NCBI GenBank assembly: GCA_050952725.1
Contig: JBMNLN010000001.1
Location: forward strand, 578,454-642,453
Reading direction: 5' to 3'
Source: Bacilli bacterium
GTDB lineage: Bacteria; Bacillota_I; Bacilli_A; RFN20; CAG-826
Length of the DNA: 64,000 nt
Shown one piece after another: positions 18,096 through 25,548 of the stretch; the stretch's first letter is position 1, and every line of letters begins with the position of its first letter. The position numbers and the translations under genes are program-made. The notes under the pieces are model-generated. The model worked only from the letters and a program-made list of their open reading frames with translations, was not told where the DNA came from and made no database searches.

Positions 18096-19340
18096 ATGTT
18101 CACTAAAAAACGAAAAATAAATATTATCTTTTCGACTTTAGTTGTCGGCATGACACTTCTTGCTGGTAACGGCTTGATGAATTCGCTGCACAAATCAGCA
18201 AAAGTGGTCGGTGATTTCACTTACACCGTAACACTAGATGATACTTTGGTAATCGGTGATTACACATCGTTTAACGCTAAAACAGGTTTAGGCAATGATG
18301 TGGAAATGAAAGCCGTTGGCGCTTCCGCCTTTAACACCGGATTTATCACCTTAGCTAGCGAAGGTTATGTCTATAACAATGCGGCAATCACTGGCATTGG
18401 TCGAGTCACAGTCGTTTTAGCAAGCGGGAATGCCGCATTATCTTATGGAGTTTACGCAGATGATTTTACGAAAACCGTCAATATTACTTCGGGCACGGAA
18501 ATCACCCTTGATTATGCTAGTAACTTCTTTAAAATTGCAGCAGGTGTAGGTGGGGCTAAAATTGAAAGCGTCTTAATCAAATTTGAGTGCTTGGAAGCGA
18601 AGAAATACGATATCCATTGGGTCGGACGTGTTTCCGAAAGTGTGGAAGACAAAGGTGTCACCTTTAACACTAGGCAAGAAACGGCGATGGCTGGTTGGGG
18701 CATTCTCGATTGGGATACCGCTGAATTAAAAGCGGGATTTGGTCTTTTAACTGGTAATTTTATCGTCGAATTCGATTTGGATACGATTGAAGCAGAAAGT
18801 AACAACCATCAATACAAATTCGCTTTAGCGCTCAAACGTGTTAACGAAAACCATGAGGGCTTCTTTGTTTCGGATCGGTTTGGGATGAGCAACCAATACT
18901 GGAATGATAATAATGAAGTGTGCGGCATTGATTATCGTGCGCTTAAGAGTAATCAACCTGGTTATGGTAATGCCGATGGGATTGATCCTAATTATATTTA
19001 TGGGGTTGATGGTGATACCAAAGTAGCGATGAGCCGAGTGGGTAATGTAAAACATGAACTAATTGGCCACATCACTGCAAACGTCAACGTTGTCGGTCAT
19101 CACAAAATCGAACGGACAATTGTCGATACGACCTCGACTTTTGTTTGGACCTTCAAGAGCGTTGGTACTGAAACTTATGTCAACGTCATGCAATGGGCGG
19201 TCGACTACACTGGACCCAGTAAACCTAACTATGCAACTTCAACCACGATTACCACGCATTATTTAGGTGATTATGCGGTTTCATTTGTCGCCGCTGGTGT
19301 CAATGCTTCGTTTAGCAATTACAAAGCAACCATACTATAA
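18096..19340 (+). CDS. Secreted/membrane-anchored protein of unknown function sharing its C-terminal domain with the two Ig-lipoproteins
   Basis: RBS AAGGAG; basic then hydrophobic N-terminus with no lipobox. C-terminal 'LLTGNFIVEFDL...RFGMSNQYWNDNNEV...VVGHHKIERTI' aligns with 'LLEGDFEIEYDI...CFGVNNWWWEDNNEV...VVGHYKVTRVI' of 3390..5255. Confidence 0.75.
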   Translation: MFTKKRKINIIFSTLVVGMTLLAGNGLMNSLHKSAKVVGDFTYTVTLDDTLVIGDYTSFNAKTGLGNDVEMKAVGASAFNTGFITLASEGYVYNNAAITGIGRVTVVLASGNAALSYGVYADDFTKTVNITSGTEITLDYASNFFKIAAGVGGAKIESVLIKFECLEAKKYDIHWVGRVSESVEDKGVTFNTRQETAMAGWGILDWDTAELKAGFGLLTGNFIVEFDLDTIEAESNNHQYKFALALKRVNENHEGFFVSDRFGMSNQYWNDNNEVCGIDYRALKSNQPGYGNADGIDPNYIYGVDGDTKVAMSRVGNVKHELIGHITANVNVVGHHKIERTIVDTTSTFVWTFKSVGTETYVNVMQWAVDYTGPSKPNYATSTTITTHYLGDYAVSFVAAGVNASFSNYKATIL

Positions 19341-22251: not shown

Positions 22252-22327
22252 GGGGCTGTAGCTCATCTGGGAGAGCGCTTCGTTCGCAACGAAGAGGTAG
22301 CGAGTTCGATCCTCGTCAGCTCCACCA
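22252..22327 (+). tRNA. tRNA-Ala(CGC)
   Basis: 76 nt GGGGCTG...CAGCTCCACCA. G3-U70 Ala identity pair, anticodon arm CTTCG-TTCGCAA-CGAAG, TTCGA T-loop, encoded CCA. Confidence 0.96.
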
Positions 22328-22342
22328 TTTTAATGAGAACCC

Positions 22343-22388
22343 CCCTGTTTATTAGCGTAGAATTTGCTACCATATAAACAGGGTTTTT
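22343..22388 (+). terminator. Intrinsic terminator after tRNA-Ala
   Basis: CCCTGTTTAT...ATAAACAGGG 10-bp stem followed by TTTTT. Confidence 0.65.
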
Positions 22389-22429
22389 GTTTTGAATTCC
22401 CGTTAAAAACAAGATAAAAGGTTGAAAAA

Positions 22430-23224
22430 ATGAAGATACACGACCAACATGTCCACAGTCATTATTCCTTTGATAGCAAACAAGAGATCGAAGTTTATCT
22501 TCAACTCGCCTTTGCAAGAGGTTTAAAGTATTTTATTCTTACCGATCATCTTGATTTGAACTTTCTCAATCGAGGTCAAGATCTTAAATTTGATCTTGAA
22601 AAACAGCGAATTGAACTTCATAAATTACAGAAAAAATATGAAAGTCTCCACCTCTTACAAGGAATTGAAATCGGCTATAAACCAAGTGAGTTAAAACGGA
22701 TTAACGAAATTATCAATAATCACAATTTGGACTTGATTAATTTATCCTTACACGAAGTCGATGGCATTGACTTTTTCTCTCAAGAGGATTTTATTCAACT
22801 CGGCCGAGAGAGAACATTGAAAATCTATTTCCAAAAAAGTCTTGAAATGGTCCAAAACTTCGATGATTTTGATGTTTTATGTCATCTTGGTTATGCGTTC
22901 AAAACCGCTTATAGTCTTGATAATTCGCTTCGAATTGAAGATTATGAGACGATTATTAGCCAAATTATGAAAACGCTCATCGCTAAAGATAAGTCGTTAG
23001 AAGTGAATACAAAAGTCGCTGAATCTCTGCCGCCTTCCTATACGGTTTACATATTAAGGTTATACAAAAGTCTTGGGGGCGTAAATCTCACCCTTTCAAG
23101 CGATGCGCATTGTGTGGAAAGGTATGGTGATCGTTTTGATAAATATGAACGAATAATTAAAGAGTGTGGATTTGATCGTCTAGTTTATTATGTTGCTCGC
23201 CAGAAGTTATTCGTCTTCATCTAA
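22430..23224 (+). CDS. PHP-domain phosphatase, histidinol-phosphatase HisJ family
   Basis: HDQHVHSHYSFDS, TDH, GIEIG, CHLGY, SSDAH metal ligands. Confidence 0.88.
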   Translation: MKIHDQHVHSHYSFDSKQEIEVYLQLAFARGLKYFILTDHLDLNFLNRGQDLKFDLEKQRIELHKLQKKYESLHLLQGIEIGYKPSELKRINEIINNHNLDLINLSLHEVDGIDFFSQEDFIQLGRERTLKIYFQKSLEMVQNFDDFDVLCHLGYAFKTAYSLDNSLRIEDYETIISQIMKTLIAKDKSLEVNTKVAESLPPSYTVYILRLYKSLGGVNLTLSSDAHCVERYGDRFDKYERIIKECGFDRLVYYVARQKLFVFI

Positions 23225-23242
23225 AAAAGGAGTGTTTCATCT

Positions 23243-24667
23243 ATGACAAATAAAGAGTTTTTTCTCAACTGGATTTCTAGAAATTGGAATTCCCTAGTCG
23301 ATCGGGTCTCCCTTGCCTATTATGAAGAGGTCAAGAAGCATTATTTTGCAGAAGTTGGTGGTGAAATTAATCTTACCGAATTAAGCAAAAATAACGACAT
23401 TTATGAAGTGGAGACCAATGCGATTCTCCTCCTAGTAGAAAAGTGGCTCTATGCCCATGCATCTTATCTTGAAAAAGGGAAGATGAGTTTTTATCGCAAT
23501 ACCTTTAAGCGAAGAACCACATTGGTCAATCACTATTTATATGATGATCAAGAAGGTCTTTTTTATAATTACAACTCCGTATTAAAAAGTAGAGATAAAA
23601 CTTGCTCACCGCTTCAGCAATTCTATCTATATTGGTTAGCTTTTATCTCTGATAAAGAGTTAGCTCAAGCACTTTTATCTAAAATTGATAAAGATGACCC
23701 CAAGCTCTTTGTGGTATTTATGGGACTACGTCGGTTAGGACTGTGGGATCAGGCGGATGAAATTGGGAAAATAATCGGTTTTACAGTCGATGATTATAAC
23801 CCGAGAATTTCTACTAATACAGGGCCTTTATTAAATAGACATTCCCTTTTTGAAACGCTGAGGATGATTAAAAAGGCTGGGCTTGAAGCTTATGATCATT
23901 CAATGATAGAGTTTGGCGAATTTTACACCGAAGACAATTATTTGGAAAACGCAAGAGAATTGCGGGAATTTGCTGACAAAATCGGCCTTGAATGCAATCA
24001 AACCCATGCGATTTTCCCCGTTGTTCATCCTTCGCTTAGTGAAGAAGAAACGCAAAGGAGAATCATGTATACAAAGCGCATCTTAGAAATCTCAAAAATA
24101 TTAGGGGCTGACCATTGCATTATTCATCCAATTAACTTCTATACCGAACAGGAAAATGATGATTATTTTCAGCAATATCTCCCTTTGGCTAAGAAGTTAA
24201 ATATTAAGATTGCTACTGAGAATATGTTCAATTGGGAAGATGATTATGCCGCTTTGGCAGCCTGTTCTAATCATGAAAATTTTAAGGAACTATGCGATTT
24301 AGTAAATGACTCGCATTTTGTCGCTTGTGTCGATCTGGGACACGCGGAATTACAAGGTTTAAATACCTCGGCTGTGCAAATGATTGAAAATCTTGGTCGC
24401 TATGTTGAAAGCCTGCATATTCATGATAATAATTCTCGTCATGATTTACATAAGTTACCTTTGACTTCTGGTATCGATTTCGACCTAATTCTCGATGCTT
24501 TAGCAAGGATTGATTATCGCGGAGATATTACTTTTGAAGCCAATCGCTTCATCGATCAAATGCCCAAAGAATTACATCAATCATGCTTACGGACCATGTA
24601 TCAACTTGGACTTTACTTTAAAGCAGAATTACTGATTAGAAGAAAAGCAAAGGAGTTCCTGATTTAA
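23243..24667 (+). CDS. Fusion of a degenerate trehalase-like (GH37) N-terminal region and a sugar-phosphate isomerase/epimerase TIM barrel (AP_endonuc_2 family)
   Basis: C-terminal ~285 aa has TIM-barrel metal motifs QTHA, IATENM, CVDLGH, LHIHDNN, ITFE. The N-terminal ~185 aa resembles trehalase helices (VETNAIL...EKWL; [15 protein letters not shown]). Confidence 0.72.
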   Translation: [474 protein letters not shown]

Positions 24668-24742
24668 TTGTATAAAAAATAAAACCAGGATCAAAAGATA
24701 GTTCTTTCTCAAAGAGAAGCGGAAACATGATGTGATATACTA

Positions 24743-25489
24743 ATGATGATGGAAAAAGAAAAACTAGTCACCTTACAAGAGATGATTGATCAGGCGGCGC
24801 GCATTGTCTTTTTTGGCGGAGCAGGTGTCTCGACTGAATCGGGAATCCCCGATTTTCGTAGCGCCCAAGGTATTTACAATACCAATTTTCCATATACCGC
24901 TGAAGAAGTCGTCTCCCATCATTTTTTCTTTCAAAATCCAGATAAGTTTTATGAATTTTATAAAGAGAAAATGATTTTTCCCGATGCGAAACCCAATGCA
25001 TGTCATATCCGTTTAGCGGAACTAGAACAAGCGGGAAAACTAACTGCGATTATTACCCAAAACATCGATGGTCTCCATCAAAAAGCAGGAAGTTCAAATG
25101 TTTTAGAATTACATGGAACAGTGCATCGGAATTTCTGTTTGAAATGCCATAAACAATATGATGTTAATAAGATTTTGGAATCTGGCACTCCCCATTGTTC
25201 CTGTGGGGGCTTAATTAAGCCCGATGTAGTTCTTTATGGTGAGCAACTCGACCAAGATGTTTTAAAAGAGAGTATAATCGCTTTGCAAACTGCTGATTTG
25301 CTAATTATTGGCGGGACCTCCCTTTTAGTTTATCCTGCCGCAGGTCTTATTTCCTATTTTCCCCCTTCTCGTCCTATTGTTTTGATCAATAAGGGAACTA
25401 CTGGCAAGGAGGGGCTAGCAACTCTTGTGATTAATGAGCCGATTGGCGAGGTCTTTAAAGAAATAAAAATATCACCTCGTGAGGGATGA
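24743..25489 (+). CDS. cobB: NAD-dependent protein deacylase, Sir2 family
   Basis: GAGVSTESGIPDFRS, TQNIDGLHQKAG, HG, CxxC...CxC Zn site, GGTSL. Confidence 0.95.
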   Translation: MMMEKEKLVTLQEMIDQAARIVFFGGAGVSTESGIPDFRSAQGIYNTNFPYTAEEVVSHHFFFQNPDKFYEFYKEKMIFPDAKPNACHIRLAELEQAGKLTAIITQNIDGLHQKAGSSNVLELHGTVHRNFCLKCHKQYDVNKILESGTPHCSCGGLIKPDVVLYGEQLDQDVLKESIIALQTADLLIIGGTSLLVYPAAGLISYFPPSRPIVLINKGTTGKEGLATLVINEPIGEVFKEIKISPREG

Positions 25490-25519
25490 GATGATACTTC
25501 AAACAACAAGAGAATTGAT

Positions 25520-25548
25520 GGGGTTTTAATTCAAAAGCCCCGTTTTTT
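25520..25548 (+). terminator. Intrinsic terminator between convergent cobB and nrdG
   Basis: GGGGTTTT/AAAGCCCC stem followed by GTTTTTT. Confidence 0.6.

Follow-up and report, generated by a model that had tools for sequence, protein, structure and literature searches.

What kind of protein arises when part of a trehalase-like glycosidase is joined in frame to a TIM barrel, and is the product a relic or a working protein? This question is raised by an open reading frame (ORF) of 474 amino acids (aa) in a 64,000-nucleotide stretch of contig JBMNLN010000001.1 from a Bacilli bacterium (the window, to which all unprefixed positions refer). We consider it probable that the ORF encodes a conserved two-domain cytoplasmic protein, in which a catalytically dead N-terminal domain derived from glycoside hydrolase family 37 (GH37) is docked on an intact, metal-dependent TIM barrel. 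The ORF is open throughout and the identical full-length product is recorded for the 1.33-Mb contig; its boundaries and its ribosome-binding site, both read in the sequence, agree with an earlier note made from the DNA letters. The fusion and its parts are laid out as follows.

23227..23232, + strand: AAGGAG Shine-Dalgarno sequence, 10 nucleotides (nt) 5' of the ATG and 2 nt past the stop of the upstream PHP gene
23243..24667, + strand: two-domain fusion ORF, 474 aa, stop codon counted in
23243..23782, + strand: residues 1-180, the N-terminal domain, an incomplete (alpha/alpha)6 toroid built from eight helices and a beta-hairpin
23387..23773, + strand: GH37-homologous core, residues 49-177, matching positions 203-354 of short GH37 proteins
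23783..23815, + strand: inter-domain linker, residues 181-191, DDYxPxISTNT, with Y185, P187 and T191 invariant in the family alignment
23807..24640, + strand: xylose-isomerase-like TIM barrel, residues 189-466, PF01261, with nine ligand positions
24641..24664, + strand: fusion-specific C-terminal tail, a 13-aa family consensus, RRKAKEFLI in this protein

The homology of the N-terminal domain to GH37 was detected by several profile comparisons. The N-terminal 190 aa alone scored 23.5 bits against PF01204 (Trehalase; gathering cut-off 21 bits) over residues 49-142, corresponding to profile positions 300-396 of 512, and the orthologues at two other loci (L004 and L084) scored 30-31 bits. Yeast neutral trehalase (Nth1) was matched at E 4e-4 by phmmer against PDB sequences, and Escherichia coli TreA (PDB 2jf4/2wyn) at E 6.6e-6 by a three-sequence profile. 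For comparison we brought together 'trehalase family glycosidases' of ~400-420 aa encoded by uncultured gut Bacilli (hereafter short GH37), with which the N-terminal domain family aligned by hhalign at a probability of 99.3%, E 2e-20 and 30% identity. Residues 49-177, the part homologous to all of these enzymes, align as a single contiguous block interrupted by one 23-aa substrate-loop deletion near residues 151-154, which takes out the loop bearing the GH37 invariants G307, Q321 and P325. N59, E66, R91 and F127 are invariants common to the N-terminal domain and GH37, and W68, W131 and FMGLRR (159-164) are invariants new and specific to the fusion family.

Residues 1-48 gave no significant profile match to GH37 (E 0.18, at the wrong place). 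When residues 3-40 were compared with 120 short GH37 proteins by hidden Markov model, 61 of 93 weak matches fell at positions 100-150 and 7 of 93 at N-termini; the resulting placement at the GH37 helix around 105-135 is also the one reached by the global hhalign and by structural alignment, and remains weak. We therefore rejected the N-terminal TreA helix as the counterpart of residues 1-48, a pairing that the earlier note had proposed for a 10-aa peptide, in favour of the helix at ~105-135 to which the weak matches point. The trehalase similarity that the note had proposed is itself beyond chance by the Pfam, TreA and hhalign scores above, so that the lack of profile similarity it had named as fatal to its proposal did not materialize; of the methods of the type it had suggested for the N-terminal part, hhalign aligns the domain with short GH37 and Foldseek ranks TreA first. 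Its second and third peptide pairs (14 and 20 aa) are reproduced exactly in the TreA alignment, and its fourth, a helix pair with a 12-aa peptide, is supported by hhalign against short GH37. What has to be given up is its picture of separate pieces with the intervening segments missing, given the contiguity of residues 49-177; as the alignments read, the domain is best described as a GH37 barrel shortened from either end and with its loops trimmed, rather than as scattered pieces.

The truncation removed the catalytic machinery. Compared with GH37, the domain has mainly lost ~100 aa at the N-terminal end, ~60 aa with the catalytic Glu at the C-terminal end, and some loops. Homology ends at GH37 position 354, short of the invariant E385, which we take to be the catalytic base of short GH37 by analogy with TreA E496, and the chain then enters the linker and the TIM barrel. 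The acid motif ESGxD (invariant E191, G193 and D195 in short GH37), whose D195 presumably corresponds to D312, the general acid Asp of an ESGWD-type motif in TreA, would map to residues 33-48. There, BLAST paired HYFAEVGGE with HAAGESGLD; E37 and E41 are unconserved in the fusion family, and the region is unalignable by profile, leaving a degenerate Asp motif with no acid residue conserved at the ESGxD position. Because the ESGxD acid is unconserved and the catalytic Glu segment is gone, the N-terminal domain is, judged by its sequence, catalytically dead and should be unable to hydrolyse glycosides, which bears out the earlier note on the missing catalytic regions.

AlphaFold2, run with the family alignment, predicted the full-length protein with a predicted local distance difference test score (pLDDT) of 94.2 and a predicted TM-score (pTM) of 0.92, and the N-terminal domain alone with a pLDDT of 90.7. 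The model of the domain packs eight helices and the beta-hairpin into 180 residues, and these helices superpose on 8 of the 12 helices of an (alpha/alpha)6 barrel, short of a complete twelve-helix barrel. For this model, Foldseek ranked TreA entries of E. coli highest in the PDB (E 2e-4), ahead of further GH37, GH63 and GH78 toroids, and VIA-align superposed 179 of its residues on TreA 195-535 with a Z of 11.6 and a root-mean-square deviation of 3.4. Since the GH94, GH63, GH78 and GH76 toroids tie with TreA within 1 Z unit (Z 10-12), the structure does not single out GH37; taken alone it is that of a partial toroid, and the GH37 assignment rests on the sequence profiles. Among structural clusters, the ESM Atlas model lay nearest to one of 415-aa GH37 proteins from Bacillota (TM 0.76 by query).

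Modelling of the two domains together sharpened the regions at their boundary. From the isolated domain to the full model, the pLDDT rose from 84 to 96 for residues 11-20 and from 46 to 94 for linker residues 181-190, and a beta-bridge between 180-181 and 470-471 was assigned by DSSP in the full-length model only. The C-terminal tail is conserved in the fusion family and absent from TIM-B, the barrel paralogue described below, and from standalone barrels. With a pTM of 0.92 over both domains, the interface between them is confidently predicted, and from this model confidence we infer that the N-terminal domain would be docked rigidly on the barrel.

The fusion recurs well beyond this genome. 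In a large protein catalogue, ~47 clusters share the architecture; their proteins are 469-491 aa long and match 96-99% of the query at 50-65% identity, and most already carried PF01261 and PF01204 tags. Scans of genome and metagenome contigs yielded three further full-length loci (L004, L084 and L085, of which L084 = L085). Independent carriers comprise a ruminal Bacilli metagenome-assembled genome (L004), JGI metagenome contigs (L084/L085) and many ENA and Logan contigs. In the family alignment of 47 sequences, 22 residues of the N-terminal domain are invariant, and mean pairwise identity is 51% for the N-terminal domain and 69% for the TIM barrel.

Invariant residues of the N-terminal domain and linker (family alignment): F7, W10, W15, N16, Y27, Y34, L47, N59, E66, W68, L69, R91, Q126, W131, F159-R163, A171, Y185, P187

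Among three members with DNA available, the proportion of nonsynonymous differences (pN) was 0.25-0.35 in the N-terminal domain and 0.26-0.29 in the barrel, against a proportion of synonymous differences (pS) of 0.71-0.86, at which synonymous sites are saturated and the usable result is the inequality pN << pS alone. Because pN lies far below pS, both domains of the fusion are under purifying selection. The earlier note had proposed a search for the same fusion in other metagenome-assembled genomes, which found it in the ~47 clusters and the independent assemblies, and a dN/dS calculation on the N-terminal part, of which the inequality stands and the ratio itself is unusable. When 1.8 billion representatives were searched exhaustively by phmmer with the N-terminal domain, just four matches came back: a member of the fusion family, two pieces of fusions and a partial GH37 enzyme. 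The domain therefore seems to exist solely within the fusion. The fusion was absent from the 40 related genomes searched, the N-terminal domain had no match among plasmid records, and a literature search found no paper on a GH37-TIM-barrel fusion.

The C-terminal half is an intact barrel of the PF01261 (AP_endonuc_2) superfamily, scoring 76.5 bits (cut-off 31.1) over residues 209-434. Nine metal-ligand positions (H255, H295, E326, D364, H367, H392, D401, H403 and E432) are invariant in the 47 sequences, in the order H, H, E, DxxH, H, DxH, E, which we take to be the ligand set of the trinuclear zinc site of endonuclease IV (Endo IV). All nine are matched in the best solved sequence relative, MJ1311 of Methanocaldococcus jannaschii (3wqo, 'D-tagatose 3-epimerase-like protein'; E 1e-10), which Uechi et al. 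in 2014 reportedly found to have the nine Endo IV zinc ligands and no DNA groove. MJ1311 is a single-domain protein of unassigned function that has neither the N-terminal helical domain nor the C-terminal tail of the fusion, and it has been listed as an Endo IV homologue (PMC2770678).

The genome's own endonuclease IV, Nfo (NF002196 at 389 bits), belongs to the same PF01261 superfamily, and MAFFT placed all nine ligand positions of the fusion in invariant columns with it, the pairing of E432 with a Glu being uncertain. An hhalign comparison with Nfo covers six of the ligands (H295, E326, D364, H367, H392 and H403), has D401 offset by one column and leaves H255 and E432 outside the match. The fusion is not an Nfo equivalog, however, as it had no nfo match in NCBIfam; Foldseek ranks epimerases above Endo IV. 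In NCBIfam, phosphodiesterase CbiR (NF041277) is the top match not just for the fusion but also for TIM-B and the standalone barrels, and the fusion had no epimerase match in that collection. CbiR is a cobamide-remodelling phosphodiesterase of Akkermansia (mBio 2020, PMC7733943). It shares the superfamily of the fusion barrel and performs phosphodiester hydrolysis, but itself lacks a GH37-derived domain, and no cobamide genes were seen near the fusion. From the nine Endo IV-type ligands together with CbiR as the best NCBIfam match, a 'sugar isomerase' label appears unsafe and phosphoester hydrolysis is favoured. The 'intact sugar-isomerase TIM barrel' of the earlier note thus survives as an intact PF01261 barrel, with 'sugar isomerase' being merely the Pfam label.

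The same nine-ligand clade includes standalone barrels of ~285 aa, at L006:5944-6795, L008:5950-6813 and ~500 further loci. They are widespread in gut Clostridia (Oscillospiraceae, Christensenellaceae), are 38-45% identical, and are labelled 'sugar phosphate isomerase/epimerase' by one source.

We propose that the N-terminal domain descends from a short (~410 aa) GH37 glycosidase of the gut-Bacilli type, of which it would keep ~8 of 12 helices, or about two-thirds of the barrel, after loss of the first ~100 residues, loops, the catalytic Asp and the C-terminal Glu segment. Purifying selection would retain it as a non-catalytic module, always fused to a TIM barrel, which the invariant linker and the fusion-specific tail are predicted to fix rigidly to its partner. 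Catalysis would then reside in the C-terminal metal-dependent barrel and, by analogy with its relatives, may be metal-activated phosphoester hydrolysis, probably on a substrate that comes from a sugar or glycan, rather than plain isomerisation of a ketose. The most likely role of the N-terminal domain would be that of a wall or buttress shaping the substrate site or the oligomeric state of the barrel. The protein is in this sense a conserved, uncharacterised variant of two known folds, neither a decaying relic nor an assembly error. Of the two readings offered in the earlier note, the repurposed non-catalytic helical module is the one supported, in that the domain comes from GH37, lacks both catalytic residues and is fused in frame; the relic, or gene accidentally deleted and kept in frame, conflicts with ~47 conserved clusters, invariant residues, pN << pS and the pTM of 0.92.

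In the window, the gene lies in a three-gene block bounded by the following features.

22252..22327, + strand: tRNA-Ala(CGC), bounding the accessory three-gene block
22430..23224, + strand: PHP-domain phosphoesterase of the HisJ family (PF02811; TIGR01856 at 111.7 bits), with its stop 18 nt before the fusion ATG
24743..25489, + strand: Sir2/CobB NAD-dependent protein deacylase, the gene downstream of the fusion
25517-25544: terminator-like hairpin, closing a probable PHP/fusion/Sir2 operon

No terminator was found between the PHP, fusion and Sir2 genes, the first being the hairpin at 25517-25544. The block at 22252-25544 sits between tRNA-Ala(CGC) and nrdG-nrdD; in a genome of the same genus (G001, C20:36000-48000) tRNA-Ala(CGC) lies beside nrdG/nrdD, the slot contains a fragment of DUF4143 only, and neither PHP nor Sir2 was found in it. 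Because this slot lacks the block and the 40 related genomes lack the fusion, the PHP/fusion/Sir2 block is accessory and occupies a variable tRNA-adjacent site. The genome (1.33 Mb, one contig) contains no other PF01204 match, no GH37 gene and no partner barrel; a weak third PF01261 match was rejected as a partner barrel, being a TatD DNase. A 414-aa ORF at 18096-19340, part of a glycan operon nearby, gave no match in Pfam or NCBIfam and was rejected as the window's GH37, as it equals the L004 GH37 in length and is unrelated to it.

The clusters at L004 and L084 have another composition, with the gene order GH123-like, 614-619-aa protein, GH20C, fusion, second TIM barrel and intact 412-414-aa GH37, followed by a GDSL esterase or GH36. 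The conserved 614-619-aa protein (L004:2300-4159, L084:1290-3134) has no Pfam or NCBIfam match. The second barrel, TIM-B (278-280 aa; L004:7401-8243, L084:6404-7240), is a paralogue 37% identical to the fusion barrel that keeps the nine ligand positions and is absent from the window's genome. Because TIM-B overlaps the end of the fusion by 16 nt, translational coupling of the two is suggested, perhaps towards a hetero-oligomer. The intact GH37 lies two genes downstream of the fusion at both loci, and since the N-terminal domain shares 32% identity with the middle of this neighbour, its origin by duplication inside a glycan cluster would fit.

Several results weigh against the proposed two-domain hydrolase and are best considered with the alternatives they favour. 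The barrel could be a ketose or sugar-phosphate 3-epimerase or isomerase with the N-terminal domain a mere accessory, a possibility that we take seriously and regard as unlikely. Foldseek puts D-tagatose and D-psicose 3-epimerases and UlaE first for the barrel (E ~1e-12, TM ~0.74 by target, identity 12-20%), TIM-B has weak NCBIfam matches to fructoselysine and psicose 3-epimerases, and the E-D-H-E ligands of epimerases are a subset of those present; the CbiR match, at 36.8 bits, falls far under its equivalog cut-off of 105. Single-metal epimerases use four ligands and do not need five further positions, whereas in the fusion barrel five extra invariant ligands (H255, H295, H367, D401 and H403) match endonuclease IV and MJ1311, and CbiR is still the best NCBIfam match, with no epimerase equivalog reached. 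Neighbourhoods do little to settle the substrate: the standalone barrels lie among housekeeping genes (aminoacyl-tRNA synthetase, transketolase) that offer no clue, and contexts differ among the three known fusion loci, with a glycan cluster in two and the PHP/Sir2 block here. The same contexts bear on the idea that the N-terminal domain is a carbohydrate-recognition module aiming the barrel at glycan-linked phosphate or phosphodiester, which would make the protein a new glycan phosphodiesterase and which we find doubtful. Its GH37 origin, the invariant aromatics W10, W15, Y27, Y34, W68 and W131, the hydrolase-type nine-ligand metal site of the barrel and the two loci that put the gene among GH123-like, GH20C, GH37 and GH36 genes would all suit such a role; however, the domain has lost most of what contacts the substrate in GH37, namely the first ~100 aa together with the 23-aa loop and the two catalytic residues, the gene here lies outside any glycan locus in a genome without a GH37 gene, and the aromatics might just as well lie in the core or at the interface. 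That the domain is instead a miniaturised, still active glycosidase is extremely improbable; it passes the PF01204 gathering score, but the catalytic base segment, a conserved acid at ESGxD, a third of the barrel and the substrate loop are all missing.

The integrity of the ORF raises a further objection. In the protein catalogue, a 169-aa product corresponding to residues 1-169 and a 267-aa product corresponding to residues 208-474, starting at M208, both derive from a single 211,075-bp contig of another assembly, so that a near-identical assembly or strain apparently has the ORF broken after codon 169, at the domain boundary.

23750-23752, + strand: codon 170, CAG, the site matching the interruption after codon 169 in the other assembly

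Either a true nonsense or frameshift mutation or a fault of assembly could explain the interruption, and in view of it this lineage may be able to do without the fusion. Both products, together with the faster evolution of the N-terminal domain than of the barrel (51% versus 69% mean identity), might be read as signs that the N-terminal part has no function and is decaying, or that translation truly starts at M208. We judge this very unlikely given the 22 invariant residues, pN far below pS, the ~47 clusters and the confident predicted fold; moreover, GAGG directly abuts the M208 codon with no spacer, whereas the upstream ATG has a good ribosome-binding site. An assembly chimera or frameshift artefact joining unrelated genes might be suspected from the unusual domain pair and the metagenome-type assembly of the window, and was an outcome that the earlier note had allowed for; with the fusion and its conserved linker present in independent assemblies, it is effectively refuted and carries next to no weight. 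Against these alternatives, the dead GH37-derived domain docked on a working metal-dependent barrel remains the reading we prefer.

A bolder extension, which we consider rather doubtful, is that the protein represents a new glycan-processing enzyme class, in which a gutted GH37 serves as a sugar-recognition wall for a trinuclear-metal barrel cleaving sugar-phosphate or phosphodiester linkages, maybe as a hetero-oligomer with TIM-B; if true, this class would act in the breakdown of host or microbial glycans. For annotation, automatic pipelines may call the protein a trehalase or split it, both of which would be wrong. The finding also flags the uncharacterised MJ1311-like 'sugar isomerase' barrels of gut Clostridia and Bacilli as carrying the full Endo IV ligand set, so that their isomerase/epimerase annotation is probably misleading. 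The fusion offers a clear natural case in which two-thirds of a glycosidase (alpha/alpha)6 toroid has been kept as a stable non-catalytic domain, which bears on the truncation tolerance of toroidal repeat folds and on the recycling of dead enzymes as accessory modules.

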